DNA of 64,000 bases, taken from Bryobacterales bacterium. Lineage in GTDB: Bacteria; Acidobacteriota; Terriglobia; Bryobacterales; Bryobacteraceae. The DNA lies in assembly GCA_963735145.1 (NCBI GenBank), contig CAVTJS010000003.1:2739194-2803193 (forward strand). Reading direction: 5' to 3'. This document shows, piece after piece, positions 7,342 to 52,725 of the stretch; the stretch's first letter is position 1; each line of letters starts with the position of its first letter. Under the pieces are notes generated by a model, which worked only from the letters and a program-made list of their open reading frames with translations, ran no database searches and was not told the DNA's origin. The position numbers and the translations under genes are program-made.

Positions 7342-7779
7342 TTACGATTGGTTCCCGTTAGGTGGACGACCACTCCATGCAATAGGAAAACTCGCGGTAT
7401 TCGGCTGTGGATTTGCCGGACTCGACAATATGGTCCACCCCGGAACACAAATCCCGTATAAGAGAGGAAGGAAGGCTCTTATTGCTGAGTTCCGGATCTT
7501 GCCCCGGCGCCCATGTTCCCGTGGCCACCACGCTCCAGTCCGATCCGCCGCGCATCACAGCTTTGACGACAATCTGTAGCACAAGTGACCTTTTGGGGCG
7601 GGCCTGCGGAGTTTTCCACGACCACCGCATTAGGCTTTTTCTTTCCATGTCTATAAGGTACAGTGCTAGCGGAATCCGGTCGAGGCACGCTAGTACTGGA
7701 CAGTACCTCGTACGGCGTAGCTGAGTGGTAGCGCCGGCTTAACCCCACCGGCGATCTGTGTCGTAAGTTATTGATTTTA

Positions 7780-7857
7780 TGGAGCTGGCGGAGGGGCTTG
7801 AACCCGCGACCCTCTGATTACAAAGTATAGGGAGGGGGCGTCCATGCTATCCACTCC
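7780..7857 (-). ncRNA. non-canonical tRNA/tmRNA-like element (tRNA-like-domain only)
   Basis: The minus strand reads GGAGTGGATAGCATGGACGCCCCCTCCCTATACTTTGTAATCAGAGGGTCGCGGGTTCAAGCCCCTCCGCCAGCTCCA. The 3' end GCGGGTTCAAGCCCCTCCGCCAGCTCCA resembles, from memory, the E. coli ssrA 3' end apart from a 3-nt insertion. GGAGTGG can pair with CAGCTCC at 6 of 7 positions. CCCTC/GAGGG closes a 17-nt loop. There is no canonical D or anticodon arm, and CCA is not encoded. Confidence 0.3.
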
Positions 7858-8056
7858 TTGCTTGTTTTCAATTACTTGCAAAATAGCGGTCGTCCACCTG
7901 ATGGCTCCCCTTGCTGCGCTTAAGTTTGTTAGCCGCGAACTTCAATTCTTGAATTTAGGACCGGCGACTTTAACGGTAGCGTTGGCGCCCCTTCGACGTG
8001 AACCGCGATCGATACCTCCATAAGTTCGATTCTGTTTGCAACTAACAACCTTCGGC

Positions 8057-18771: not shown

Positions 18772-20829
18772 ATGCGATCTGAATACGCGGCAGCAGGGCT
18801 AAACTCCTCTCACCAGCTCCACTTGCTCAGCAGCGCCCAACACGCCGACAAATTGTTGGGCGATGTCGAGTCGATCCTCTCCGCTTCCAAATCAAAATCC
18901 GCCTTCAAGAAATACAAGAGTTCACTATTGCCGGCACAGGCCAAAGTCGTCGAGGACTACGTGGCTCGAATACGGACACAGTTGGAGCGTGTCCTGGAAG
19001 CCGAAGGGATTCCGCTGCCGGAACCCGCTTTCGAGTCTGTCCACACTATGCGTGTGACGCTCGCCTTTGTCAGGATCGCGTTCCAAGAGTGCACACCGAA
19101 TCGGATGCGCGGCTACGGCGAGATCCCGGAATCCGAGGTACGCATGCTCAATGGCCTCGTGGATGAGATGGTCAGCGCTGTTGAAAAGCTGGATTCGTAT
19201 CTCGCACGAGGGCTGGTGGACGACTTGGAAGCGCATCTGGAGCGGCTAGCGCGGGCGGGGGCCGATGTCGGTTTGCTGCAGATCCTTGAGCGAATTATCA
19301 ACGAGCACGGATTCGTTGAATTCCGCCCGACACTTTCTATGATCATCGATCGCCTGGAAACGAAGACTTTTGAGATTGCTCTGTTCGGCCGTGTCAGTTC
19401 CGGCAAATCCTCATTACTGAACCATGTTGTCCAGTCTGAAATTCTTCCGGTGGGCGTTAACCCGATCACTGCCGTACCGACGCGGCTAGTCTATGGCGCC
19501 ACTCCGAATGTTAGCGTGTGGTACGCGGACAAGAATCCTGAAAGATTCGATGTTTCAAAATTGCCGGAGTTCGTAAGTGAACGGCATAATCCCTCCAACT
19601 ACAAGCACGTGACACGAATCCAGCTAGAGTTGCCGTCGCCGCGGCTGAGGGATGGCATAGTGCTTGTCGACACACCGGGCCTGGGATCTTTGGCTACGTC
19701 GGGGGCTGCGGAGACGCTCGCGTACTTGCCGCGTTGCGACCTGGGCGTCGTGTTGATCGATGGCGGGTCCACGCTCACCGAAGACGATCTCGCTACCATC
19801 CGAACGTTGTACGAAGCGGGCATTCCAGCCTCTGTGCTTCTGAGCAAGAGCGACCTCCTCGCTGGGGAAGACCGGCTTCGATCATCACAGTACATCTCGG
19901 AGCAGATCTCGGCTCAGCTCGGGCTCACGGTGCCGGTTCATCCGGTGAGCATCGAACCAACACACTCCTTTCTTCTCGATGCATGGCTAACGGAAGTAAT
20001 TCTTCCGCTCTACGACAAGAACCTACAACTGATGCGGGAGTCCCTGTTCCGGAAGATTGGATCACTGCGAGGGGCAGTGGAAACCGCTTTAAAGCTCCGG
20101 CTCGATCGTACGCGGTTGTCCGACGGAGCGCCGGATCAAAGTCCAGAAGACCTCGCTGCCGTAGACAGCAGGCTCAGGATGGCCGCCGGCCGAATTGCGG
20201 AGGCTCGCGAGCTTTGCTTCCAGATTACTTACGCCGTTCGCGGCTATGGTGAACAGGCCTTGAGCAATGCGGCAAGTCGCTTAACGCAAACAGGCCTTCC
20301 CAGCACTGTCGTTCAAGAAGCGTTGGAGCAGAGCGCGGCTGAAAAGGCCGGCGAAGTATTTCGCGCTCTGAAGGAAGCTGCCAGCGAACTGGGCGGCACC
20401 TTGGAGTCTACAGCGCGGGCGCTCCATTTCGCGGAGTCAAACCAGGAAGAAGATCTCGCGGCCGCCATCCAGGAACTGCCAAAACTCGACCTCGGTGCAT
20501 TGGACATTGACGTGAAACCGGGCCTGTTCTTGAAGGTATCGAGGCGTCTCTCGATCCACAAGGTCGAAAGAGAATTGCGGCGTCAGATCGGGCAACGTGT
20601 TTCAGAGGCGTTTTCAAGTTTCGGAAGCATGTTGGACACCTGGTCACGGCGGACACTGAGCGAATTGCAGGTTCGATTCGATGCCGAAGCGGATGCCTAC
20701 CGCGCTCACATCAATCGCCTGGCTACGCGCGGGAAGGTTTCGACGGGCGAACAATCCGCTATTGCGCGCGACCTGGATCTGCTCGCGGAACCGGCCGGCA
20801 ATACGACCGCGGAGATCACAACTCGATGA
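18772..20829 (+). CDS. bacterial dynamin-like GTPase (BDLP) with a long helical N-terminal extension
   Basis: 685-aa ORF. G1 is FGRVSSGKSSLLN, G3 is VDTPGLGS and G4 is LLSKSDLL, followed by a long helical stalk. About 200 aa precede the GTPase domain. Confidence 0.8.
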   Translation: MRSEYAAAGLNSSHQLHLLSSAQHADKLLGDVESILSASKSKSAFKKYKSSLLPAQAKVVEDYVARIRTQLERVLEAEGIPLPEPAFESVHTMRVTLAFVRIAFQECTPNRMRGYGEIPESEVRMLNGLVDEMVSAVEKLDSYLARGLVDDLEAHLERLARAGADVGLLQILERIINEHGFVEFRPTLSMIIDRLETKTFEIALFGRVSSGKSSLLNHVVQSEILPVGVNPITAVPTRLVYGATPNVSVWYADKNPERFDVSKLPEFVSERHNPSNYKHVTRIQLELPSPRLRDGIVLVDTPGLGSLATSGAAETLAYLPRCDLGVVLIDGGSTLTEDDLATIRTLYEAGIPASVLLSKSDLLAGEDRLRSSQYISEQISAQLGLTVPVHPVSIEPTHSFLLDAWLTEVILPLYDKNLQLMRESLFRKIGSLRGAVETALKLRLDRTRLSDGAPDQSPEDLAAVDSRLRMAAGRIAEARELCFQITYAVRGYGEQALSNAASRLTQTGLPSTVVQEALEQSAAEKAGEVFRALKEAASELGGTLESTARALHFAESNQEEDLAAAIQELPKLDLGALDIDVKPGLFLKVSRRLSIHKVERELRRQIGQRVSEAFSSFGSMLDTWSRRTLSELQVRFDAEADAYRAHINRLATRGKVSTGEQSAIARDLDLLAEPAGNTTAEITTR

Positions 20830-21316: not shown

Positions 21317-22705
21317 TCACTGCGCGACGGTAATCATCTGAGCCGGGTCGGCAAGAGTCATTAAGTCGCCGAACCTTGTGACGAGTGTCGCTGGCGTAGA
21401 CCAGCCGCGGATAGAGGCGAGCACGGCCGAAAAAATGGCAGCCCGTGTACTCGCCAGGCCACGCGGCGTGCCTTTTCCGAACAGTTGTCGCATTAACAAT
21501 CCAAGATTGGCCGCGCCCGAGTGCACCACCAAGCGCTTGAGAATGTTTTCCCGGCCGCGCAAATGTAGGCGACGCATCCCGCCCCGATCATACAAGTGTT
21601 GATTCCATCGCTCCAGCTTCTCGCCGCGCTGGCGTAACAGCCGGAGGCCTCGCTCTCCACGAATGCGCCGTCGATTCGCATACACCGCTTGTTGTTCCCG
21701 CTGTTGCCCTCCCCACTGTTGCGGTCCGCGATTGGGTTCCGAGCAGTACGTGCGCAAGCCCCACTCGGTGAGTTCGTTTACCAGCGCGCGACTGTGATAA
21801 CCCTTGTCGGTGACCACTTCGCGCGGCCCGTCCGTGCTGACCTGCTTCACAACATCATCGCCGTTGGCATCCGCCACCACACTCGTGATGCGCTCGCCTG
21901 CTTCGGCTACCGTTTCGGGAATCGTTGCCGTGTCTCCAACGTCTGCCCCGTGCAGCGTTACGGCGACAATCGCCCCGGTCTCCATGTCTACCGCGTGCTC
22001 GGCCTTGTGAGCCAGATGCGTGCGTCCATCCTTCATCTTGGTGATGCGCGCATCGGGATCGTGCGGATGCGTCCAGTCATCGTTGGAACCCTTCTTGGGC
22101 CGCTTGCGATCCAACTTCGCCAACTGCTCACGCGTGGGAGTTTCGATGCCGCTTTCTTTGGCCAGCCGCACCAGAAACTCCTCGTAGCGCTCTCCGGTGT
22201 CGCGCCGCACAATCGACCGTAGCGCCGCATTGGCTTCCAGAGTCGTCGCGTCTACCCCGATCGTCGTCCCCTTCAGCAGCTTCTTTTCGGCCAACACCTG
22301 CAGCACCCACTGGAACACCGCCTGATGCGTGTCCACATCCATCAGCCGCCGGGTGCGCGAGATCGTCGAATGATCCGGCACGCTTTCGTCCAGCGCGATC
22401 CTCACGAACGATCGAATCGACAGACTATCGCTGGCCCGCCATGCGATTCCGCGCTCCGAATCGATCCCTTCAAAATAGCCCACCATCAACAGCCGGAAAT
22501 AGATTCCCGGCGACAAGCCCGGCCGGCCCACCTCACCGGCGTAGAAATCCTCGCAAATCGTTTCGACGTACTCGTCGAACTTCTTCTCATCCAGAATCTG
22601 ATTCAGCCGTTGGTAAAACGGATGGCTTGCCCCTATCGGCAGCGCCGCAGTCGGTGTCCACAACCTCTCTTGCCGAACGCGCTTCTTTCGTCGTCCCATC
22701 GCCAT
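21317..22705 (-). CDS. DDE transposase (InsH-type N-terminal domain + DDE domain)
   Basis: 462-aa ORF. The N-terminus HPFYQRLNQILDEKKFDEYVE..GRPGLSPGIYFRLLMVGYFEGIDSERGIAW is typical of IS5/IS1182-like transposases. Candidate catalytic residues are in GVDATTLEANA and TDKGYHS. Confidence 0.85.
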   Translation of the reverse strand: MAMGRRKKRVRQERLWTPTAALPIGASHPFYQRLNQILDEKKFDEYVETICEDFYAGEVGRPGLSPGIYFRLLMVGYFEGIDSERGIAWRASDSLSIRSFVRIALDESVPDHSTISRTRRLMDVDTHQAVFQWVLQVLAEKKLLKGTTIGVDATTLEANAALRSIVRRDTGERYEEFLVRLAKESGIETPTREQLAKLDRKRPKKGSNDDWTHPHDPDARITKMKDGRTHLAHKAEHAVDMETGAIVAVTLHGADVGDTATIPETVAEAGERITSVVADANGDDVVKQVSTDGPREVVTDKGYHSRALVNELTEWGLRTYCSEPNRGPQQWGGQQREQQAVYANRRRIRGERGLRLLRQRGEKLERWNQHLYDRGGMRRLHLRGRENILKRLVVHSGAANLGLLMRQLFGKGTPRGLASTRAAIFSAVLASIRGWSTPATLVTRFGDLMTLADPAQMITVAQ

Positions 22706-22770: not shown

Positions 22771-23103
22771 GGCCCTTGCCGCCTTCTGAATTCGCACAAT
22801 ACTCACGTCCGACATCGCGATCAACCCCTTGTCCATCATTTCTTCCAGGATGGGTAACAGCCGTTGGATGTTTTCCTCGGTATCGACGATCTGGACCAGG
22901 ATTGGCAAGTCATGCGTGAGGATATGAGACCGGTGAATCTCCGCCGTGTCGCCGTACCCTTCGAGGCCGCGGAAGACCGTGGCTCCGGCGATCTTCAGTT
23001 CCAGGCATTTGTGAACTATAGCCTCATAGAGCGGTTTGCCCTGGTGGCGGTCATGCTCGGTGAAATGCAAGCGCAGCAGTTTAGCTGGCTGATAGTTTTG
23101 CAT
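22768..23103 (-). CDS. DUF190 (PII-like fold) protein, single domain
   Basis: 111-aa ORF with the DUF190 signature (GKPLYEAIV..AGATVFRGLEGYG..LPILVQIVDTEENI). Its stop codon TAG is formed by the CTA at the IS junction. Confidence 0.75.
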   Translation of the reverse strand: MQNYQPAKLLRLHFTEHDRHQGKPLYEAIVHKCLELKIAGATVFRGLEGYGDTAEIHRSHILTHDLPILVQIVDTEENIQRLLPILEEMMDKGLIAMSDVSIVRIQKAARA

Positions 23104-23851
23104 CGATAGCCTCCGGCTTCGTATCCGCCTGCCTTGTATCCGTTAAAGAGTGGGGGTGAATGAGGCGAACCATGTCCACCTCCGATACTACGATGAGTCC
23201 GTCCTGCAACATTTCCTCAACCGCTTCCGCAGCCAGACTCATTTTCTCTTCCGTCTCGATGACTGCGATCACCATGGGCAGGTCGCGGCTGGTGTGCAGG
23301 CGATTCTGTTTATGCGTGTGTCCTTTTACTCCATATCCCAGGATGCCGCGGTAAACGGTGGCGCCGGATATATCCAGCATGCGGAGGCGTTTGACGATCG
23401 CGTCGTAGAGCGGTTCTCCGTTCCATCGATCCGCCTCGCCCAGGAAGATCCACATCAGTTTGGCCTTTCCGGCTTTGCGCTCATGCAGCTGCTTCGGTTC
23501 CAGTCGTCGTTTTTCCTTCGTGGCGATCTTGACGACGGTCGTATCCTGAACTTCGATGAGTCCGTCTGTGACCCTGTCGTAGAGAGTTGGAAGAAGTTCG
23601 TCCACCTTCTCCGCGGTCTCGATGAATTCGATTCTGAGCGGCAAATGTTCGGACCGCGCCTCCATGGTCGGCGTGTGTATCACCTTGTGCGCTCCAAAAC
23701 CAGCCAGGGCTCGTGTTACCGTGGCGCCCGAAACGTTCTTGTGCAAAAGGAAGGTGAGGATCGATTCGTAGATCGGGGCCAAATGGAACTGCGTGTCCTC
23801 ATTGACGTAGATCGTGACCTTCTTTGCGGTTCCCTTGGAAAGCATGGACAC
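23081..23851 (-). CDS. tandem double DUF190 (PII-like) protein
   Basis: 256-aa ORF with two DUF190 repeats (..SGATVTRALAGFG..LPLRIEFIETAEKV.. and ..SGATVYRGILGYG..LPMVIAVIETEEKM..). A strong RBS (AAGGAGGAGG) precedes the ATG. It overlaps the next gene by 23 nt. Confidence 0.75.
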   Translation of the reverse strand: MSMLSKGTAKKVTIYVNEDTQFHLAPIYESILTFLLHKNVSGATVTRALAGFGAHKVIHTPTMEARSEHLPLRIEFIETAEKVDELLPTLYDRVTDGLIEVQDTTVVKIATKEKRRLEPKQLHERKAGKAKLMWIFLGEADRWNGEPLYDAIVKRLRMLDISGATVYRGILGYGVKGHTHKQNRLHTSRDLPMVIAVIETEEKMSLAAEAVEEMLQDGLIVVSEVDMVRLIHPHSLTDTRQADTKPEAIDAKLSAS

Positions 23852-25158: not shown

Positions 25159-26859
25159 TTATCGAGGGCCGGTCCGCACGTTTCCTTCCTGTTCAATCGC
25201 TTTTCGAGCGGAATCCATCCGCTCCAGATGATTCTTGATCGCGGGTACGCGGTCGCTGCTGGCGGTTTCGATCAGTCCTTCCACCGTTGCGATCAGCTCG
25301 TCGAGGCGGCGCTCGGATTCTTTTCCAACACTCAGCAATGCGGCATTGATGCTCTCCTCCCATTGCGACGTGAGGCGGGAGATGTTCGCGTAGACAATCT
25401 CAGGAATCCTTCGGGTAAAGTGGCGTCTTACTAGAGATTTGATCAATACGACCGGCGCGACCGGCGACAGGAGCTCCCAATTACGATCGAATATCCGGCC
25501 CGCCCGAATGTCGGGTTCCTGCGGCTCTTGAACCTCGATTTCCACTTCGGTGGTGCGGAGCGGGATGCCAAATGCTCGCAGCGTACTCTCCGACAGCCGG
25601 TCACGAAATTCCTGGAGGTAACGAAGAACCTGCCTTCTGGCCTTTTCAAGCGGCTCGATGACCCGTGCGTGCTCCGCCAGCGATATTCGGGCTAATTCGG
25701 CCGATAACGTTCCTTCCAGCCAGTCTTCGAAGGAGCTAAGGAGAACAGCCAGGCTCTTGGTCCAAGCGGGAAACCTTGAGGCGAAATCCGTACGTAAACA
25801 GCGTTCGAGCTCCAGTTGGTGCGGCTCGAAGACGGCCGCTGCAATGGCGCGCGTGCCGCCCACGGCGTGGCGCACAATAAGGCGCAGCTCGCTCTTGACG
25901 TCGGCCATTACTTGCTTCTCGCCGATCACCTGCCTTTTCACTGCTTCACGCTCAGAATCTAGAAGCTCTGCTGACTTCAGATGCAACGCCACGTAATCGG
26001 AGCATTCTCTCAGCAACGTATCGATCTTGCGTGAGAGGATTGCGCTGCGGCGTCCCCCGAACTCGGTCAGAGTGCGGTCTATAACCTTCTGCTCCAATTG
26101 CTCGCGCAGTTCTTCGTATCCAGGACGAACAGAGTACGGAAGAATTTCCGGTGAACTCCCAAAGCTCTTGGTCAACCGGGTGCGGATGAAATCGAGGACT
26201 TCAGAGCGCTCTTCGGTGCGAAGCAGATCCACTTTAGTCAGCAGTACGGACACGTTCGGCGTGTACCGATACAGGTTCTTCAACAGCTCGATGTCTTGCT
26301 GGGAGAGCGGAGGATCTACGCTAACCGCAACCAAGGCCAAGCCCACGTTGGGCAGCCAGCTCAGAGACGCTTCGGTGTTGTGCGCAAGCACGCTCTCAAG
26401 GCCCGGCGTATCCACGAATATCAAGCCCGGAAACCGTGCCAGGCTAGGGAGTTCAACCCGGATGGTTGCCACTCGTTTGTAATTCTCTGCATTCTCACGC
26501 TCCGAGACGTAACTCGCGATTTCATTCAGGGGAATTTCGTTTACGCGTCCTTCCAGGAATCGGACTTCGGCTCTCTCGGCGGGGCCAAATCGAATTTCAG
26601 TGACTACCGTTGTTACAGGGACCACTCCGACGGGTAGCAGCGGGCGACCGAGGAAGTGATTCAGGAAGCTGCTCTTGCCGGCTTTGAATCGTCCGACGAT
26701 TGCGATTGTGATCTCAGCCTGCGTCAGAGCGGACTGGCACGAGGTAAGGAGGGCATTAATCGGAGAGAGCCCATAGCGCTCGGCGATTTCTGAGACCAGA
26801 TCGAGACCTTGGCTAAGCTGAGGATCGACGGAAGTGGCCTTTGAATTGGTCGAGAACAA
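25159..26859 (-). CDS. bacterial dynamin-like GTPase (BDLP)
   Basis: 566-aa ORF with a TTG start in the track. G1 is VGRFKAGKSSFLNHF, G3 is VDTPGLES and G4 is LLTKVDLL, followed by a helical stalk. It is a paralogue of 18772-20829. Confidence 0.8.
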   Translation of the reverse strand: MFSTNSKATSVDPQLSQGLDLVSEIAERYGLSPINALLTSCQSALTQAEITIAIVGRFKAGKSSFLNHFLGRPLLPVGVVPVTTVVTEIRFGPAERAEVRFLEGRVNEIPLNEIASYVSERENAENYKRVATIRVELPSLARFPGLIFVDTPGLESVLAHNTEASLSWLPNVGLALVAVSVDPPLSQQDIELLKNLYRYTPNVSVLLTKVDLLRTEERSEVLDFIRTRLTKSFGSSPEILPYSVRPGYEELREQLEQKVIDRTLTEFGGRRSAILSRKIDTLLRECSDYVALHLKSAELLDSEREAVKRQVIGEKQVMADVKSELRLIVRHAVGGTRAIAAAVFEPHQLELERCLRTDFASRFPAWTKSLAVLLSSFEDWLEGTLSAELARISLAEHARVIEPLEKARRQVLRYLQEFRDRLSESTLRAFGIPLRTTEVEIEVQEPQEPDIRAGRIFDRNWELLSPVAPVVLIKSLVRRHFTRRIPEIVYANISRLTSQWEESINAALLSVGKESERRLDELIATVEGLIETASSDRVPAIKNHLERMDSARKAIEQEGNVRTGPR

Positions 26860-45128: not shown

Positions 45129-45334
45129 CGAGCCGCTACCCGTGAAGTGCTCGGACTCCAGCTTCCGGTGGCTTCAATTGAAGACGTCCTGCAAGGGAAG
45201 ATCGGGCGGCTTCTCATCCCGAACCGCGAAGCACTAAACGCAGGAAAGACCTGCTCGACATCGAGCGGCTGCTTGAATCTTATCCTGCTCTCAGAACTCG
45301 CGTGCCGGAAGAGATTCTCAGTCAGCTAGGATAG
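45129..45334 (+). pseudogene. 5'-truncated, frameshifted paralogue of the nucleotidyltransferase-fold gene at 52204-52725
   Basis: ..REVLGLQLPVASIEDVLQGKI.. then, after a frame change, ..RKDLLDIERLLESYPALRTRVPEEILSQLG*. It aligns with ..REVLGLRLPVASIEDVLQGKV..KKDLLDIERLLESYPALTETIPADILRQIR*. The nucleotide similarity is clear by eye but diverged. Confidence 0.65.
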
Positions 45335-46366
45335 CGCCGTCTTTTCCGCCAGCTGCTGCAGCTCCCAAATGTCCCGCCGGCTTTGCCCCAGCAGCGGCGC
45401 CAGCGCCATCTTGCCGGCGCGTCCGATTTGCGATTCCAGAAATATTAGTTCCTTCAATTGCCCCGGCAGCTCCGGGTCCGGCGTTACGGGAAAGCCCATC
45501 TCGCGGCGCAGCAAATCGCCTTTGGCGCGGGCACTCAATTCGAGCGACAGGTGCAGGTACGAAAGCATGTCGCCCAGGATCACCGGCGTGAAGGTGCTTT
45601 CGAGCGACCGCATGTACGAACCCACCGGCGACTTGCTGAAGGTCCCGGTTGCGATCATCTGCAGCAGATCGATGTCTTTGTCGAGCTTCATACCCAGCCA
45701 TTTTTCGAGCACTTTTTCGCTGCGCCAAAAGATGAACGCGATCACCGCCGGCAGAATCACCAGCACCACCACTGCCGCGATCACCGGACGCCACAAGGGC
45801 TGGTTGTAGAGTAGGTGAATCACGATGGCCATCGCGAGTCCGGGCAAAAACGTCAGCAGAGAGCGCGACCCGCGAATCTCGCTCAGGTTGGCCGAAACGG
45901 TTCCGAAGATGGCGGTGGCGCCGCCATGCATCATGGCGGTTCCCAGGCCGCGAATCGCGCTGGCGATAAGGCCGCTGGCGGAAATATCGGGAATGTAAGT
46001 CAGATTTTCGAGCACCGCGAACCCGGCGCCGACGGCGAATCCGGAGATCGCGGTGTCCACCATAAAGCCCACGCGATTGGATCGCAGCAGCCAGGCGATA
46101 TACGCCGCTTTTGCGATTTCCTCGACGACCGGCGCGCCCGATCGCGACCAGATCGCGGGCGAAACAAGCCCAGCCGCATAGACGGCCGTGTTTAAGCCGT
46201 AGCAGATCACCGCCACCGCGCATCCCACTGCGACGGATCGCAGAACGCGGCCGAGCGTCAGCAGTTTATAGGTATCGATCAACTCCAGCGCGAACAAAAA
46301 AATCAGCACCGGGAGCACGCTGGCGACAACTTGGGCGAGAATCAACCATAGGGCGGCCGGGGCCAT
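45326..46366 (-). CDS. PrsW-family intramembrane protease with a ~140-aa cytoplasmic C-terminal extension
   Basis: 346-aa polytopic ORF with PrsW signatures (VVEEIAKAAYIAWLL, GFAVLENLTYI, AMMHGGATAIFG). Its start overlaps the stop of the upstream gene by 1 nt. Confidence 0.75.
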   Translation of the reverse strand: MAPAALWLILAQVVASVLPVLIFLFALELIDTYKLLTLGRVLRSVAVGCAVAVICYGLNTAVYAAGLVSPAIWSRSGAPVVEEIAKAAYIAWLLRSNRVGFMVDTAISGFAVGAGFAVLENLTYIPDISASGLIASAIRGLGTAMMHGGATAIFGTVSANLSEIRGSRSLLTFLPGLAMAIVIHLLYNQPLWRPVIAAVVVLVILPAVIAFIFWRSEKVLEKWLGMKLDKDIDLLQMIATGTFSKSPVGSYMRSLESTFTPVILGDMLSYLHLSLELSARAKGDLLRREMGFPVTPDPELPGQLKELIFLESQIGRAGKMALAPLLGQSRRDIWELQQLAEKTALS

Positions 46367-49329
46367 CAGAGGATCCGCAGCGAGACCATGTATTCGGTGG
46401 TGATGTGGCCGTTACGATCGGCCGCGGCTGCGTAGCCGCCCGACAACGTGCTGTTCAAGTAGCTGAAGAGCACCATGCGAAGATCAAGCTGCGTTCCCAG
46501 GTTCACGTAATAACCGCGGCTGGGATCGCTGGTAAAGTTGGTCAGCAGGCCGGATGAAAAGAAGGTCAGCCGCGCCCAGTTGACGTAGGCCCAGGTGGAT
46601 CCGAATTCGCGGAAACGTTTGGGCGGCAAATTGTATTCGCCCAGCAGCTTGCCGAAGCTGCGCGCGCCCAGGGCGTCGATACCCACGCCGGGGAAACTGT
46701 AAAATTCGCGATACCGGTCGATGGAAAGATGATCGATGTAATTGTTCCCAAATGCGCCGAAGTAGAAACTGCCGAAGGGGCTGGCGAAATCGCCAAAAGA
46801 TTTTCCCGTGGAAGCCCGCAGCCAGAACGCGCTATTGCGCGGCAACAGAAATCCATGATCGTAATTCCCCCACAGGCTGGGGAAAGCGCCATGCGTGTAA
46901 TATAGGCGCGAGTGAAGGCCCCAAGTGGTGCCTTGCTCGTCATCCACGGCGCCTTGCGCCCGTTCCAGATTCGAATACTTCAAGCCCAGGTTCGCGTCGA
47001 GAAGATTCCCAATGTTGTTGGTGGAGACGTTTTGATATTCGGGGAGCGCGTTGAGATCGGAGTAACCGGCCACGCTCCAATCGAGCGAGAGCGTGCGCGG
47101 CGTATCGTAAAGCAAGTACTGGGTGTGCGCCAGCTTCAACGATTCGCCCTTGCGGCTCAGCTTGGTGGGGCCGAACAGATCGTAGAAATCGGCGTAATTG
47201 TAGTAGCCGGTCAGCTTCCAATCCCACAGGTGAGCGTCGAACGAAAGGTGCGCGCGCTCGTTGGAAGGCAGATTCGGATCGGGCGAGACGCTGGCATCGA
47301 AATTCACGCCCGCGATACGCAGGCGATCCGCAAATTCGGTGCGCATACCCACGGCGGCCGTATCCCTGTATCCTTGCACCACCGGATAGGCTGAAATCAA
47401 CTGGACATTGCGCAGCGGGTCGTAGGACCCGGCGCGCGTAATCAGGTTCTCCGATTTGATGGAAGACGGCGGCGGGAGCTTCCATTTGCGCAGCTCGGGA
47501 TATTTGTTGAGCGTGGCCTGGCCAAAATATTTGACGGCGCTCACGTCATCCAGCGGCTTCACGGGCACGCGCGCCGGGACGAATCCCTTGCTGGTATATT
47601 CGAACGCGATCAGCGATCCGTCGGCCAGCGGTATGGGACGGAACAGCCCGGTTTCGGCGTTGCTGATCACGTCCATCTTCTTCGTCGAAAAATCATATCG
47701 GAACAGATTCGACGCGCCGGTGTAATACGACGAGCCGTAGAGATAGCGGCCGTCGGGTGAATGTACGAAATTGCCGGGCGAGTTGTATTCGAAATCGTAG
47801 AGCACTTCCGGCATCGCCGCCGCGTCTTTACGCAGATCTGCGATCTTAAAACGCACCAGCTTCTGGCGGCCGCTCACATCGGAAATAGCGCCGGTAAGAT
47901 ACCGGCCGTCGGGCGAGACGTCGATATCGAAGATGTCATTGCCGTATTCGAAATCGTGCCGGACCGTCAGTTCCTTATACGGAACCTTAAACTCTACCAG
48001 CGCCGACAAACCATTATTATGACGGACGCCCCAGATGGAGCCATCCGCGCTATCGAACGCCAGGTCTCCGGTGCGAATGTCTTTCAACAATCGTTGGGAG
48101 TGATGCGTTTGGACATCGTAGACATTCAAGTCGCGCAAATCGTTATTGTCGGTGGTGTAGTAGATCTTGCGGCCACGCGGGTCCCAAGTAACAGACGTCA
48201 CGTAATACAACGCCGGTCCCTTGATGTCCTTCAGCTCGTCGATTTTTCCGGTGTCAATGTGAATGGCGGCAAGACTGGCCATATGTGTGGGGTAGCGAAT
48301 AGCCGCATAAATCACGTTATTCTTTGGATCGAAATACGCGCGAGAGACTGACCCTAGAGTTTGCTGCGTCAGCCTTTGCGGCATGGTCACCGGATACTTG
48401 CGGATCTCGGCGAGGTTGGCTTCCTGAAACTTGCGCTCATCGGCGATCCACATTTTCCAGGCGTCGTTCATTCCGATTCCATACACCTGCTTGAAGCGGG
48501 CCCCGAAATAGCGCTTGGTGTTTTCGCCGCGCGTGGTCCACGCGAGCAATTTTTCCGGACCATAGGTGTAACAAAGCCAGGTCATGAAGCGGGTGCCATA
48601 AAGGTAGGAATTGGCGCCGGTCTGAAAGTCGGCGGAGGTTCCTTCCGATTCCAGCCCCACCACATCGTAGATATAGGCGTCGTCGCGGACCATGGCGCGA
48701 AACACCATTTCATCCCAGCCGCCGATGGCGCGGCCGAGTCCGCCGGCCATCCAGGTTTCCATGAAGGTTGCGATGCCTTCGTGAAACCAGCGCGTCGAAT
48801 AATGCCTGGGGCTGGTCAGCGAACTATAGAGAATGGAAACCGGGTCCTCATCGGTAGGCACCACCTTGCCGAAGAATAGCGCGCGAAAGCGGCGATCCAT
48901 CGCATTGGAATTGTCGCCCATCACGATGTGGATGGACTCGTGATTCATGATCCAGGTCATGCGTTCGTTGGCGGGCAGGGTTTCGTAGGTGTAGCTGAAG
49001 GGAGCGATGCCGACATCGATAAAGTTGGACGGTACCGTTCCTGCGGCGCCGTGGCCGTAGTCGCCAAAATCCTCGAGCAAAACGGTTAGTTTCTGCGAGG
49101 GAGTGTAATGAAAGAGATTATTTTCGAAGTTCAGCGCATTTTCGTAAGAACGGATCAGGTGGGTGACCAGGTATTCATGGGCCGGGCTGTAATAAAGAAC
49201 CTCGACGTGCTTGGAGGACTGGACGAAGATCTTAGGATGGGCGGCGAAGGCGGGAGCGCAGAACAGGAAGGAAAGTAAAATGAGTCCCGCTATCCAACGC
49301 GGGACTCGTATGAAAACTCCGTTTAGCAA
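46366..49329 (-). CDS. 987-aa secreted protein: HExxH metalloprotease-like N-domain, PD40/TolB-like beta-propeller repeats, aromatic/Gly-rich C-terminal region
   Basis: It has a signal peptide (LILLSFLFCAPAFA), the zinc motif MNHESIHIVMGD, and repeats such as DVSPDGRYLTGAISD and VHSPDGRYLYGSSYY. The last ~350 aa show an alternating pattern suggestive of a beta-barrel or beta-sheet domain. Confidence 0.65.
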   Translation of the reverse strand: MLNGVFIRVPRWIAGLILLSFLFCAPAFAAHPKIFVQSSKHVEVLYYSPAHEYLVTHLIRSYENALNFENNLFHYTPSQKLTVLLEDFGDYGHGAAGTVPSNFIDVGIAPFSYTYETLPANERMTWIMNHESIHIVMGDNSNAMDRRFRALFFGKVVPTDEDPVSILYSSLTSPRHYSTRWFHEGIATFMETWMAGGLGRAIGGWDEMVFRAMVRDDAYIYDVVGLESEGTSADFQTGANSYLYGTRFMTWLCYTYGPEKLLAWTTRGENTKRYFGARFKQVYGIGMNDAWKMWIADERKFQEANLAEIRKYPVTMPQRLTQQTLGSVSRAYFDPKNNVIYAAIRYPTHMASLAAIHIDTGKIDELKDIKGPALYYVTSVTWDPRGRKIYYTTDNNDLRDLNVYDVQTHHSQRLLKDIRTGDLAFDSADGSIWGVRHNNGLSALVEFKVPYKELTVRHDFEYGNDIFDIDVSPDGRYLTGAISDVSGRQKLVRFKIADLRKDAAAMPEVLYDFEYNSPGNFVHSPDGRYLYGSSYYTGASNLFRYDFSTKKMDVISNAETGLFRPIPLADGSLIAFEYTSKGFVPARVPVKPLDDVSAVKYFGQATLNKYPELRKWKLPPPSSIKSENLITRAGSYDPLRNVQLISAYPVVQGYRDTAAVGMRTEFADRLRIAGVNFDASVSPDPNLPSNERAHLSFDAHLWDWKLTGYYNYADFYDLFGPTKLSRKGESLKLAHTQYLLYDTPRTLSLDWSVAGYSDLNALPEYQNVSTNNIGNLLDANLGLKYSNLERAQGAVDDEQGTTWGLHSRLYYTHGAFPSLWGNYDHGFLLPRNSAFWLRASTGKSFGDFASPFGSFYFGAFGNNYIDHLSIDRYREFYSFPGVGIDALGARSFGKLLGEYNLPPKRFREFGSTWAYVNWARLTFFSSGLLTNFTSDPSRGYYVNLGTQLDLRMVLFSYLNSTLSGGYAAAADRNGHITTEYMVSLRIL

Positions 49330-49342
49330 TGGTTCCTAGTCG

Positions 49343-50029
49343 CTATCGGTTGCCGCCGCCGCCACCGCCGTTGCCGAACGACATCCGCGCCACGCTCCCG
49401 TTCTGAAGCGCATTCAGGAAGCTGGCTTGGGAAGCCAAAAGCCCAAACGTTTGAGAGGCCATGACAGCACGGAAGTCGGTACGTTGCAAAAGGGAGCCGA
49501 ACAGCTTTTCGCCCGCAATCGCCTTGAAGGAATCCGTCCGGAGCAACGCTTCTAAGGGCGCGTTTTGAGCCAACGCCTTGTACTCCGCGCTGCCTTGGAC
49601 AGCCGCGTTCAGATCGGCGTGGGTTCTGAGCGCGTTCTGGAAGGCATTGGATAAGACCAGTCTTGCAAACCCGGGGTTCAGCGCTAACGCGCGAAACTGC
49701 TCATTGGCCAAAAGGGCTGCGAAAGATGCCTGCCGGGACATCGAGGCGAACTCGCTGCTATTCACCAGTTCCTGGAATGCGTGGTCCTTAGCCAGCGACT
49801 TGAATTCGCTGCTTTCCAAAATAGCTTGAGTGGCCACCGGCGCCGAGCCCGGAGCGGCAACGTCGGCCGAGTCCACTTGCCCGTCGCGATAGACATCGCG
49901 CTTACCGATTGCGCCTTGCGTCTTATCCGAGCTGACGTGCGTGTTGGAAAAATAAAACAGGATACCCGCGGCGATCAGGCCGCCCCCAATCAGTATGGGA
50001 AATCTCCATTTGCGTACTAACGAACTCAT
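49343..50029 (-). CDS. single-pass membrane protein built from ~9-residue (xxFxxLxxx) repeats
   Basis: 228-aa ORF with an N-terminal TM helix (FPILIGGGLIAAGILFYF). About 14 consecutive units follow, such as SSEFKSLAK/DHAFQELVN/SSEFASMSR/QASFAALLA/NEQFRALAL/NPGFARLVL/SNAFQNALR. It ends with a Gly-rich tail GNGGGGGGNR. Confidence 0.65.
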   Translation of the reverse strand: MSSLVRKWRFPILIGGGLIAAGILFYFSNTHVSSDKTQGAIGKRDVYRDGQVDSADVAAPGSAPVATQAILESSEFKSLAKDHAFQELVNSSEFASMSRQASFAALLANEQFRALALNPGFARLVLSNAFQNALRTHADLNAAVQGSAEYKALAQNAPLEALLRTDSFKAIAGEKLFGSLLQRTDFRAVMASQTFGLLASQASFLNALQNGSVARMSFGNGGGGGGNR

Positions 50030-50140
50030 CGAGTGCCTCCCTTTATATGTGGCTGCCTTATGTCCTGGTTACGTTATAGAGTGACACAATTCGAAGGGAT
50101 GTTGCAGGCGGGCAAAAAAAGTTTCGACGTTCCTACTTTC

Positions 50141-50581
50141 TCAGCCACCGCCGGCGCCGTCGTCGATCGGGAAAGTAAAGGACAGGATGTTGCGGTCCTC
50201 TTCGCGGCGGTAATCGATGGAATCCACCATGCTCCTTACCAGGAACACGCCTAACCCGCCGATAGGGCGATCGGCCAGGCCTCGCGAAAGATCCGGGGGA
50301 TCGGCTTCTAACGGATTGAAAACGCGGCCAGAATCAGCAATTTCCACCCGCAGCTTGCGTGGACCGGCCGGCGCATAGGCCACCTCCACGGCTCCCATTT
50401 CTGGAGTATAGGCGTAGCGGGCCACATTAATAAGGATCTCTTCCAGGATGAGGTCCAGTTTCGCGAACTCGTCAGAAGCGACGCCGGCCGCGACGGCGCC
50501 CCCGCGCACAAATTCGCTAAAAGCCGAAATCGACCCTGCGCTGGCTGGCAGAACGAGCCGTTTGACCGGAGGATCCATCAC
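50141..50581 (-). CDS. RsbW/SpoIIAB-type anti-sigma regulatory serine kinase (HATPase_c_2)
   Basis: 146-aa ORF. The N-box is LILEEILINVARYAY and the G-boxes are EIADSGRVFNP and GGLGVFLVRSMVD. It overlaps the upstream STAS gene by 4 nt. Confidence 0.8.
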   Translation of the reverse strand: MMDPPVKRLVLPASAGSISAFSEFVRGGAVAAGVASDEFAKLDLILEEILINVARYAYTPEMGAVEVAYAPAGPRKLRVEIADSGRVFNPLEADPPDLSRGLADRPIGGLGVFLVRSMVDSIDYRREEDRNILSFTFPIDDGAGGG

Positions 50582-50910
50582 AGGGTGGCGAGGGCTTCCT
50601 GAGCGGTGTCGAAGACCGGAAACAAGCCGATAAGCCGCGTCATTTCAAATACTTGGCGCGGTAATCCATGCAGCCCGCAGAGGATAAGAGAACCGGAACC
50701 TGATTGCAGCTTTTGCGCCACCGAGAGAAAACATCGCAGCCCCATGCTGCTGACGTACTGCAGGCCATCGAGATCCGCGATCAGATGCTTGGCGCCCTGC
50801 GTGATCCACCGATCGCAGGCCTGTTCGAACTCGTGGGCGTTCTCGGCATCCATGCGGCCCGTCACTTTGAGCAGCACAGCCTTTTCGAGTTCGGTGGGCT
50901 CAATATTCAT
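50578..50910 (-). CDS. STAS-domain anti-sigma-factor antagonist (SpoIIAA/RsbV-like)
   Basis: 110-aa ORF with ..LIADLDGLQYVSSMGLRCFL.., which contains the conserved phosphorylatable Ser context. Confidence 0.85.
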   Translation of the reverse strand: MNIEPTELEKAVLLKVTGRMDAENAHEFEQACDRWITQGAKHLIADLDGLQYVSSMGLRCFLSVAQKLQSGSGSLILCGLHGLPRQVFEMTRLIGLFPVFDTAQEALATL

Positions 50911-51012
50911 AAAGGTCCCAGCTTACTGAAGGCCGGGCGGAGAAAGCAACGCCGCCGACCGCATGTTACGATAACTCAATTCGGTGGGCCCCCAGCCCTG
51001 ATCGAACGTCTA

Positions 51013-51537
51013 ATGAACTTTTCGGACGACGACATCGAGAAGCTTCGGCCGAGGATACGATTCAAGGTGTGCTACGAAGTGGGCTTCTATTGCCCCGATG
51101 TGGATGATATCGTTCAGGAAAGCCTCGCGCGCTTCCTGGTGGCGACGCGTGAAGAGAAGATCCAGAATCCCGCGGCAGTGGGTGCATTTCTGAACGGCAT
51201 ATGCCGAAACGTGATCTCTGAATATCGCCGCAGGAATATGCGGGATGAGCCGATGCCGGAGGTAGTACCTGAACCGCCGAGCAAGTCGATCCCGGAAGCC
51301 GAGCTGTTCGAGCTTCGCCAAGCCATCGCCCAAGGCCTGGACCAGCTCTCCGCGCGCGATCGCCAGGTGTTGCGAGCTTTCTATCTGGAAGAAAAGTCGA
51401 AAGAAGAGATCCTGAAGCAGACGGGCATGAGCGACGAGAACTTTCGCGTGGTGCTGTGCCGGGCTAAGGAAAGATTTCGCGCGATTTATGTGGAGCAGAC
51501 GAAACATCGGAGGCCTTCGCGTCACATAGTTATATGA
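51013..51537 (+). CDS. ECF-type RNA polymerase sigma factor
   Basis: Within ORF 50704-51537 the plausible start is the ATG at 51013 (MNFSDDD..). Region 2 is DVDDIVQESLARFL..FLNGICRNVISEYRRR. Region 4 is LSARDRQVLRAFYLEEKSKEEILKQTGMSDENFRVVLCRAKERFR. Confidence 0.85.
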   Translation: MNFSDDDIEKLRPRIRFKVCYEVGFYCPDVDDIVQESLARFLVATREEKIQNPAAVGAFLNGICRNVISEYRRRNMRDEPMPEVVPEPPSKSIPEAELFELRQAIAQGLDQLSARDRQVLRAFYLEEKSKEEILKQTGMSDENFRVVLCRAKERFRAIYVEQTKHRRPSRHIVI

Positions 51538-52058
51538 GCATGGATTTCCATGAAGATCCGGTCCTACGGGAAGATCTCATCGCGCGCTACCTGCAGCGCC
51601 GGTTGAGTGCCCTATTGACCGAGGAATGGGAAAATCACTACCTGGAATGCAACGACTGCTTCGAGGAGATCCGTGCCACCGAGTTGTTGATTCGCGGGCT
51701 GGGCGAGCCGCTTGTCGAACGCAAACGAGTGAATGACGTCACTGTTCTGGCTTTTGCGCGAGGTACGCAACTGCTGGCGGCATCGCTCGAGTTGAGCGAA
51801 CTGTCCAAAGCGATCCGATTGGAGAGCGACACCAAGGTCCTGATCGATTTGAGCAAGGTGAGCCGGATCGACAGCACCGGTCTAGGTGTGCTGATGGGCT
51901 GCTACTCGCATTCCGTCAAGAACGCGGGCGTGCTGAAGCTGCTGAAGCCGGATGCGCCGGTGCGGCGGGTGCTGAGCATGACCAAGATCGATTCGGTGCT
52001 GCAAACGTTTGAGGACGAGACGGCGGCGATTGAGAGCTTTGGGCGCGCGCCAGCCTGA
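51534..52058 (+). CDS. soluble fusion of a zinc-anti-sigma (ZAS, HxxxCxxC) N-terminal segment and a STAS domain
   Basis: 174-aa ORF whose ATG overlaps the sigma stop (ATGA). The N-terminus has ..EEWENHYLECNDCFEEI.. (H-x3-C-x2-C). Residues ~70-170 form a STAS domain (VLIDLSKVSRIDSTGLGVLMG..LKLLKPDAPVRRVLSMTKIDSVLQTF). There is no TM segment. Confidence 0.7.
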   Translation: MSMDFHEDPVLREDLIARYLQRRLSALLTEEWENHYLECNDCFEEIRATELLIRGLGEPLVERKRVNDVTVLAFARGTQLLAASLELSELSKAIRLESDTKVLIDLSKVSRIDSTGLGVLMGCYSHSVKNAGVLKLLKPDAPVRRVLSMTKIDSVLQTFEDETAAIESFGRAPA

Positions 52059-52203: not shown

Positions 52204-52725
52204 ATGAAAGCACTCTCCTTTTGGAAGGCCGTCACCCTGGACAAATCCAATCTCTTGGACGAAGTCTTCGCATTGCTCCAGGGGCACAAAGTTCGCTTCT
52301 GTGTGATCGGTGGTCAGGCGGTGAATGCTTACGTCGAGCCGCTCGTCAGCCTCGATCTGGATCTCGCGGTCGCAGTCGATCAGGTCGATGAAGTGCAAAA
52401 GCTCATGGCGACACATTTCCAAACGGAAGTATTTCCGCATAGCATCAACGTGAGCTCCGCAGGCTCGAATTTGCGCGTGCAGTTCCAGACCGATTCCCGG
52501 TACAGCGACTTTGTTGCCCGGTCCTCGATCCGAGAGGTCCTCGGCCTCCGCCTTCCGGTCGCCTCCATTGAAGATGTGCTTCAGGGGAAGGTTTGGGCGG
52601 CTCTAAGTCCGGACCGACGCGCAACAAAGCGAAAGAAAGACCTGCTCGACATCGAGCGCCTGCTCGAATCGTATCCCGCGCTTACTGAAACCATCCCAGC
52701 AGATATTCTTCGCCAGATCCGATAA
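52204..52725 (+). CDS. Pol-beta-superfamily nucleotidyltransferase-fold protein (function unknown)
   Basis: 173-aa ORF. VIGGQAVNAYVEPLVSLDLDLAV matches the G-[GS]-x(n)-D-x-D NTase pattern. A decayed paralogue lies at 45129-45334. Confidence 0.55.
   Translation: MKALSFWKAVTLDKSNLLDEVFALLQGHKVRFCVIGGQAVNAYVEPLVSLDLDLAVAVDQVDEVQKLMATHFQTEVFPHSINVSSAGSNLRVQFQTDSRYSDFVARSSIREVLGLRLPVASIEDVLQGKVWAALSPDRRATKRKKDLLDIERLLESYPALTETIPADILRQIR

Follow-up and report, generated by a model that had tools for sequence, protein, structure and literature searches.

How is an extracytoplasmic function (ECF) sigma factor controlled when the gene that overlaps it encodes a soluble protein joining a zinc-anti-sigma (ZAS)-like domain to a STAS domain? 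This arrangement is found in a 64,000-nt stretch of contig CAVTJS010000003.1 from a Bryobacterales bacterium (phylum Acidobacteriota), referred to below as the window; all coordinates are positions within it. The open reading frame (ORF) map and the raw sequence were inspected, and domains were called with Pfam and NCBIfam profile scans. All gene coordinates, overlaps, and gaps reported for this locus in a first-pass annotation were reproduced. The stop codon of a gene for a 174-aa ECF (group 4) sigma factor (51013 to 51537, plus strand) overlaps, in an ATGA at 51534 to 51537, the start of a second 174-aa ORF (51534 to 52058, plus strand), hereafter the fusion. Divergent from the sigma gene, with 102 nt to the sigma start codon, lies a gene for a stand-alone STAS protein (50578 to 50910, minus strand), which overlaps by 4 nt a gene for a HATPase_c_2 kinase (50141 to 50581, minus strand). 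A 111-nt gap separates the kinase gene from a minus-strand gene that we call p228 (49343 to 50029), followed on the same strand by genes for a 987-aa protein (46366 to 49329) and a PrsW-family protein (45326 to 46366), which share 1 nt. The best explanation for the whole, which we hold with about even confidence, is that the fusion is a ZAS anti-sigma factor whose sensor has been swapped for a STAS domain and which is wired to the neighboring partner-switching pair.

Domain architecture of the fusion protein

By profile and structural model, the C-terminal part of the fusion (residues ~61 to 170; 51714 to 52043, plus strand) is a complete STAS domain of the SpoIIAA/RsbV type. It matched PF01740 over residues 88 to 163 (E = 1.1e-10), and Foldseek returned target TM-scores of ~0.8 to TM1081 (3F43), SpoIIAA (1TIL_B), TM1442, and RsbV (6M36). 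Serine 114, in the motif DSTGLG (codon at 51873 to 51875), aligns with Ser58 of SpoIIAA (1TH8_B). The D113-S114 pair is invariant in all relatives covering the site, with S114 checked in 31 sequences.

The joining of the two parts is not an assembly artifact. In a homolog search space of 5.8 billion proteins, at least 120 full-length homologs of 170 to 179 aa (78 to 95% identity) were found on many independent metagenome contigs, which excludes the concern, raised in the first-pass annotation, that an indel had generated the fusion. An exhaustive scan of 50%-identity representatives extended the full-length relatives down to ~39% identity; only 15 of these clusters scored below 1e-30, indicating that the fusion family is small. 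In some assemblies, the sigma factor and the fusion are themselves called as one ORF (L001 7479 to 8522, P0271, P0272, P0273, and P0122; homologous loci and proteins carry L and P numbers, respectively). P0271 and P0272 were rejected as genuine sigma-fusion proteins, being frameshift artifacts with sigma4 out of frame. In L001 and P0273 (348 aa), a near-intact sigma factor is joined to the fusion, and these ORFs could be either sequencing errors or genuine sigma-ZAS-STAS single polypeptides.

The N-terminal part of the fusion (residues 1 to 57; 51534 to 51704, plus strand) is predicted, at the level of the family, to be an anti-sigma domain. The sequence HYLECNDC (H-x3-C-x2-C) occupies residues 35 to 42 (51636 to 51659), and the candidate zinc ligands are H6, H35, C39, and C42. 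When 19 diverse N-termini from the family were scanned singly, 13 matched zf-HC2 (best E = 3.1e-5). The top Protein Data Bank (PDB) match of the family N-terminal profile was 3HUG_B (E = 1.1e-3), which is RslA, the zinc anti-sigma factor of SigL in Mycobacterium tuberculosis, and the H-x3-C-x2-C motifs were in register. The sigma factors of the outgroup clade nearest to the window sigma (P0310 and P0313) are ~38% identical to the L001 ortholog, and the gene directly after them encodes a 244-aa protein whose N-terminal zf-HC2 domain scores above the gathering threshold; the protein also has a proline-rich linker, a hydrophobic segment that presumably spans the membrane, and a domain at its C-terminus. 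Profile alignment (hhalign) of the fusion N-terminus with this 244-aa protein gave a probability of 96% (E = 4e-9; 36% identity over 45 columns). Among 144 relatives, a His or Cys is present at position 5/6 in 138 of the 140 that carry H-x3-C-x2-C, and the four relatives lacking the motif (P0128, P0131, P0132, and P0273) also lack the position 5/6 ligand; since these four probably form one clade, they are counted as one loss event and not as statistics. The maximum 19-residue Kyte-Doolittle hydropathy of the fusion is 1.23, and a membrane helix is not expected in it. These findings support the initial description of a ZAS-type domain and a complete STAS domain in one polypeptide without a membrane anchor, with the ZAS part assigned at the family level.

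An AlphaFold2 model of the fusion, built from a 31-sequence alignment (pLDDT, 88.5; pTM, 0.66), places helices at residues 9 to 20, 26 to 36, and 40 to 57. Class I anti-sigma domains consist of four helices, of which helices 1 to 3 touch sigma4, while helix 4, joined through a flexible linker, lies over sigma2 regions 2.1/2.2 (PMC7406223). This four-helix architecture with a sigma2-binding helix 4 is not seen in the fusion model, and there is no room for a fourth helix because strand 1 of the STAS domain starts at residue 61. On the model, the anti-sigma domain appears to be truncated, with the STAS domain occupying the place of helix 4, a feature absent from the first-pass annotation; the STAS domain would be the obvious candidate for a second sigma contact or for regulating it.

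Conservation of the sigma-fusion pair and of the divergent STAS/kinase pair

The sigma factor passed the ECF superfamily model TIGR02937 (E = 3.3e-15; 56.1 bits against a cutoff of 42.9) and consists of sigma2 and sigma4 regions only, matching Sigma70_r2 and Sigma70_r4_2. None of the NCBIfam sigma subfamily models reached its cutoff for the window sigma. It is the only sigma factor found in the cluster or among the 38 window ORFs scanned.

To place this gene pair in context, 15 loci from genomes of Bryobacterales and other Acidobacteriota (L001 to L015), with a fusion identity of 61 to 92%, were compared. The sigma gene, whose orthologs in these loci are 65 to 88% identical, precedes the fusion gene in all of them, usually with the same 4-nt overlap, and 14 of the 15 share the arrangement of the window, which is more than chance would give. 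An ECF sigma gene also lies directly upstream of the fusion in L016, L018, L020, L022, L024, L028, and L029. These include the distant members P0123 (54% identity, L018), P0134 (40%, L022), and P0137 (39%, L024), as well as the zinc-less P0132 (L028) and P0131 (L029); in P0124 (L020) and P0128 (L016), the upstream sigma is present as a fragment. Among the lineages with upstream DNA to inspect, the sole exception is P0127, where the fusion gene and an ECF sigma gene converge. The conserved core thus appears to be the sigma factor and the fusion only, as expected of a cognate sigma/anti-sigma pair.

The two divergent genes encode the predicted components of a partner-switching pair. The 110-aa stand-alone STAS protein matched PF01740 (E = 2.5e-20) and the anti-sigma-antagonist model TIGR00377 (73.9 bits, above the cutoff of 53.45), and the second serine of its VSSMGL motif aligns with Ser58 of SpoIIAA. 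The 146-aa putative serine kinase matched PF13581 (HATPase_c_2; E = 3.9e-22). Its only PDB sequence match was RsbW, and in an alignment with Bacillus subtilis RsbW (6M36_A), the N-box (E..N), the G1 box (DSGRVF, DxGxxF), and the G2 box (GGLG) are all kept. Because its scores fall far below the cutoffs of the RsbW equivalog models (PRK04069, 35 bits against 145; TIGR01924, 33 against 155), we describe the kinase, from its profile scores, as RsbW/SpoIIAB-like and not as an RsbW ortholog.

The STAS/kinase pair is divergent from the sigma-fusion pair in 14 of the 15 loci and in L018. The p228/987-aa/PrsW-like operon is syntenic in 12 loci, with two more cut by contig ends, and in L018, a p228 homolog follows the kinase gene. 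Both the STAS/kinase pair and this operon are conserved only in the Bryobacterales clade (at least 54% identity), and the PrsW operon was not found beside the distant members with readable flanks (P0137 and P0127, and upstream of P0132). The first-pass annotation had asked whether the fusion and its whole neighborhood are conserved: this held deeply for the sigma factor and the fusion, and it did not hold for the STAS/kinase pair and the PrsW operon next to distant members.

Several further observations concern the sigma lineage and its loci. The sigma factor begins with a conserved N-terminal extension before region 2.1 (residues 1 to 30; 51013 to 51100), E-x-L-E-K-L-R-P-R-L-R-F-K-V-x-Y-x-V-G-F-x-C-P-D, in which R12, R16, G24, and C27 are invariant in 15 orthologs. 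Database entries for P0274, P0284, and P0302 are over-extended at the N-terminus (272 to 302 aa); these calls begin at upstream TTG/GTG codons and run antisense through the STAS gene (window 50704 to 51537, plus strand), indicating that public 5'-end gene calls for this sigma family are unreliable. In L008 (~7700 to 8001), only the C-terminal 73 sigma residues were detected upstream of an intact fusion, and the 8 kb upstream contain no STAS/kinase/PrsW block; rearrangement, insertion, or masked sequence may account for this. The sister sigma clade has a conserved operon (L026 4001 to 8615; L027 4001 to 8582) encoding the sigma factor, the zf-HC2 protein, a DUF8256 protein, and a large TPR-CHAT (caspase-like) protein. 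On the P0127 contig (JGI 3300047160), the fusion paralog directly follows a gene for a 698-aa Peptidase_C14 (caspase-like) protein, and a second STAS paralog of 177 aa is also present. Together, the Peptidase_C14 and CHAT proteins hint at a recurrent link of this sigma lineage to caspase-like proteases.

Promoters, the envelope operon, and flanking genes

Across the 15 loci, conservation between the STAS and sigma genes is highest at TGTTACGAT (50964 to 50972, plus strand), a putative extended -10 element of a housekeeping-type promoter. A TGnTAnnnT element is conserved ahead of the sigma genes; the similar element in L018 and in the sister-clade loci L026 and L027 reads TGnTACACT. An autoregulatory ECF promoter at this position was considered and rejected, as the distance of a GCAAC motif varies among loci and the conserved element is extended -10-like. 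A housekeeping-type promoter with no sign of autoregulation suggests that control of the sigma factor should be post-translational.

The best-conserved noncoding block of the region in the 15-locus alignment lies in the 111-nt gap upstream of p228 (50071 to 50124, minus strand). It consists of AAACTTTTTTT, a short spacer, TGCAAC (50106 to 50101), 15 nt, GTCAC (50085 to 50081), and TCTATAACGT; both promoter-like blocks are nearly invariant at fixed spacing. The TGCAAC-N15-GTCAC pattern occurs once, upstream of p228, in 11 of the 15 loci. The only other match in the window, GCAAC-N15-GTCAC (19609 to 19633), is antisense inside a dynamin-like gene and was dismissed as chance level. The TGCAAC and GTC elements resemble the -35 and -10 elements of the Bacillus sigmaM, sigmaW, and sigmaX promoters, and by its sequence the block looks like an ECF-type promoter.

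The operon behind this putative promoter encodes three proteins. The first, p228, is predicted to cross the membrane once, contains short xxFxxL repeats, and belongs to no recognized family; its homologs at the same position are 43 to 60% identical. The 987-aa protein carries an HExxH motif (HESIH), only weak Pfam matches (PD40, a beta-propeller, 0.002; Peptidase_MA_2, 0.019), and an N-terminal hydrophobic segment, and is presumed to be exported; its syntenic orthologs are 71 to 88% identical, and a PDB sequence search with it returned nothing significant. The third, a 346-aa putative intramembrane protease, belongs to the PrsW family by PF13367 (E = 1.2e-17; 64.5 bits against a cutoff of 23.5), and EEIAK and HLLYN motifs are present in its translation; a PDB sequence search with it returned nothing useful.

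The first-pass annotation had suggested that the PrsW operon might be either the regulon or an envelope-stress input, noting that Bacillus PrsW is the site-1 protease of RsiW. As in PrsW-RsiW-SigW, a PrsW-family gene lies in the neighborhood of an ECF sigma gene. Unlike RsiW, however, the local anti-sigma factor is soluble and lacks an extracytoplasmic site-1 cleavage site, so the PrsW-like protein cannot act on it as a site-1 protease. It also scored 23 bits against the cutoff of 225 on the PrsW equivalog model NF033739 and has an extra C-terminal domain of ~130 aa. The idea of an RsiW-type input was therefore abandoned. The PrsW-like protein is more likely to be a target gene or a bystander than an activating protease, and for the envelope operon, the role of a candidate target fits better than that of an input.

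Outside these genes, an AbiEii-like nucleotidyltransferase gene (PF08843, 1.5e-5; 52204 to 52725, plus strand) follows the fusion, and a degenerate AbiEii-like remnant (45195 to 45291) lies beyond the PrsW gene as a direct repeat with 73% identity over 97 nt, so that the seven-gene cluster is bracketed by copies. In L001 and L011, an AbiEii-like homolog sits at the PrsW end. Elsewhere in the window (18772 to 20829, plus strand; 21317 to 22705 and 25159 to 26859, minus strand), two dynamin-family GTPase genes flank a DUF772/DDE transposase gene and a DUF190/P-II-like gene (23081 to 23851).

Partner switching, its alternatives, and known systems

We propose that the fusion would be the cognate anti-sigma factor of the ECF sigma factor encoded just upstream. 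Its N-terminal zinc-binding domain would descend from a classical membrane-anchored ZAS anti-sigma factor and would hold the sigma factor, most likely via sigma4, and the transmembrane and extracytoplasmic sensor part would have been replaced by a cytoplasmic STAS domain serving as the signal-receiving module. In the Bryobacterales clade, the RsbW-like kinase would bind and/or phosphorylate Ser114, with the stand-alone STAS protein competing for the same kinase, and the partner-switching cascade would end on a ZAS-type rather than a kinase-type anti-sigma factor. Transcription of the sigma operon from its housekeeping-type extended -10 promoter would leave control to the post-translational level, and the p228/987-aa/PrsW-like operon, with its conserved ECF-looking promoter, would be the most likely local member of the regulon. 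Phosphorylation could then switch sigma release in cis, as we infer, and might either free the sigma factor or lock it. A more specific version is that the locus represents a third mode of partner switching, in which a Ser-phosphorylation cascade reaches an ECF sigma factor through an anti-sigma factor with its own cis STAS domain; the STAS domain would replace the sigma2-binding helix, and phosphorylation of, or docking at, Ser114 would directly open the complex. This version is offered tentatively, and we think it somewhat more doubtful than probable.

Several results weigh against the proposed mechanism. The N-terminal 72 residues of the window fusion have no Pfam match even at E <= 10, and because of this, the ZAS assignment rests on family-level evidence: the anti-sigma similarity anticipated in the first-pass annotation emerged from family profiles, which match zf-HC2 and RslA, and not from the window copy. 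The AlphaFold2 model of the fusion has no counterpart of the sigma2-blocking helix present in every solved class I complex (PMC7406223), and as a consequence, sigma inhibition may need the STAS domain or another partner. In an AlphaFold2 model of the naturally tethered sigma-fusion P0273 (pTM, 0.45), there was no confident sigma/anti-sigma packing. No PP2C phosphatase was found among the 38 larger ORFs of the window. The STAS/kinase pair was not found within ~8 kb of P0137 and P0127 or in the 8 kb preceding P0132, where the contig terminates shortly after the gene, and Ser114 is still invariant in all three, suggesting that the local kinase is not the universal partner. Finally, the -35/-10 spacing of the p228 motif is ~2 nt shorter than that of textbook ECF promoters such as the Bacillus sigmaW/sigmaM consensus.

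Four other explanations were weighed against the same evidence. The fusion might be a redox or metal sensor of the RsrA type, in which the ZAS domain senses thiol oxidation or zinc loss, the STAS domain is a structural or dimerization appendage, and the STAS/kinase pair controls something else. Zinc motifs are overrepresented among soluble class I anti-sigma domains, which often sense redox state (PMC7406223), and this explanation would fit both the retention of the four candidate ligands in most members and the distant members without an adjacent kinase. However, a subclade lacking all four ligands retains the sigma pairing and the STAS domain, suggesting that zinc has a structural and not a sensory role, and the site, an H/H/C/C set like that of ChrR, has only two cysteines. 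Moreover, Ser114 is invariant, the STAS domain is conserved more strongly than a passive appendage would be, and synteny of the divergent STAS/kinase pair extends to relatives with as little as 54% identity; we consider a redox sensor unlikely. Those distant members, and the fact that synteny is documented only in one order-level clade, would also suit a situation in which the sigma-fusion genes form one pair and the STAS/kinase genes and the PrsW operon, the latter two likewise missing beside the distant members, are independent neighbors kept together by clade synteny. Against such adjacency without wiring, the divergent arrangement (~85 to 155 nt intergenic) is still present where identity has fallen to 54% for the fusion and 46% for the kinase, while flanking genes vary over the same range, and a STAS-containing anti-sigma factor beside a STAS kinase is a specific functional match. 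We accordingly give mere adjacency a low probability.

The remaining two alternatives assign different roles to the kinase. In a stressosome-like hub, the fusion would be an RsbR analog, the stand-alone STAS protein would correspond to RsbS, and the kinase would correspond to RsbT, with the N-terminal domains capturing the ECF sigma factor. The domain inventory does match RsbR/RsbS/RsbT one for one, and RsbS and a Listeria stressosome chain are among the Foldseek matches of the fusion STAS domain, at the much lower ranks 28 and 39. SpoIIAA, RsbV, and TM1081 resemble both STAS domains more closely than RsbS does. As the stand-alone STAS protein passes TIGR00377, the kinase finds only RsbW in the PDB, and the gene order is not rsbR-S-T, the fusion gene being cotranscribed with the sigma gene instead, such a hub is very unlikely. 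Alternatively, the RsbW-like kinase could itself be the true or an additional anti-sigma factor, with both STAS domains as antagonists and the fusion N-terminus merely tethering one of them to the sigma factor. HATPase_c_2 kinases are the anti-sigma factors of the SigB and SigF systems; the kinase is, apart from the ZAS domain, the only protein of the cluster with a known sigma-binding precedent, and a truncated three-helix domain may not suffice to block sigma2. On the other hand, the sigma-fusion pair occurs without a neighboring kinase in three distant lineages, and the fusion N-terminus has homology to genuine ECF anti-sigma domains. The sigma factors bound by RsbW-type proteins are of group 3, with region 3 taking part in the contact, whereas ECF sigma factors lack region 3. 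We regard a sigma-binding role of the kinase as highly improbable.

Our preferred reading, a ZAS anti-sigma factor with a STAS domain wired to the partner-switching pair, shares features with several known systems. As in the class I ZAS systems RslA/SigL, ChrR/SigE, RsrA/SigR, and RsiW/SigW, the gene directly follows an ECF sigma gene that it overlaps, H-x3-C-x2-C extends across helices 2 and 3 with an upstream His as the fourth ligand, and there is a profile-level match to RslA and zf-HC2. Unlike them, the fusion is predicted to have three helices without a sigma2-binding helix 4, and its family includes a zinc-less subclade. The C-terminal partner also differs: it is a STAS domain here, a membrane anchor with an extracytoplasmic domain in RslA and RsiW, a cupin in ChrR, and nothing in RsrA. 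The divergent pair resembles SpoIIAA-SpoIIAB and RsbV-RsbW in having overlapping genes for a serine-bearing STAS antagonist and a HATPase_c_2 kinase with its ATP motifs kept. However, those systems act on the group 3 sigma factors SigF and SigB, whereas the only local sigma factor here is an ECF, a second STAS domain is fused to a ZAS anti-sigma factor, and the PP2C phosphatase is missing from the window ORFs scanned. That anti-sigma and anti-anti-sigma modules can be fused is seen in M. tuberculosis Rv1364c, a PAS-PP2C-RsbW-STAS polypeptide, although its anti-sigma module is kinase-type, not ZAS, and acts on a group 3 sigma factor. In Pseudomonas aeruginosa, the STAS protein HsbA acts in trans on FlgM, a helical nonkinase anti-sigma factor (FlgM/FliA).

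Partner switching is established as a control of an ECF sigma factor only for PhyR-NepR-EcfG (ECF15) of the Alphaproteobacteria, where a phosphorylation-dependent antagonist frees the sigma factor from a small soluble anti-sigma factor (PMC7826278). That antagonist, a fusion of a sigma-mimic with a response-regulator receiver, works in trans, whereas the phospho-module here would be a STAS domain, with a predicted phosphorylatable serine and RsbW-like kinase, fused in cis to the anti-sigma factor. The first-pass annotation knew of no characterized example of this wiring, and likewise, a full-text literature search covering ECF, anti-sigma, STAS, and partner switching found no description of a zf-HC2/STAS fusion. 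The ECF reclassification paper never mentions STAS in its main text and states that further soluble anti-sigma variants probably exist. The parts are all of known kinds, and it is their combination that we did not find described; the architecture is firmly established, as is its conservation.

Few bacterial signaling devices are as abundant as ECF sigma factors, and only a few mechanisms are known to bring cytoplasmic signals to them: Ser/Thr kinases, C-terminal extensions, redox-sensing ZAS proteins, and mimicry of the PhyR type. Acidobacteriota, Actinobacteria, and Planctomycetes have expanded sets of STAS/RsbW networks, most of which lack known outputs. If the proposed mechanism is true, partner-switching networks can plug into ECF sigma factors, and ZAS sequestration and STAS/RsbW switching, two major paradigms of sigma control, would be linked in one polypeptide. 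The locus would also offer a compact, soluble four-protein system for studying how STAS phosphorylation is transmitted to a neighboring domain, and a candidate orthogonal switch for synthetic biology. The fusion family occurs widely in Bryobacterales metagenomes from soil and peat and is therefore probably important for the stress or envelope responses of an abundant but little-studied group of soil bacteria.

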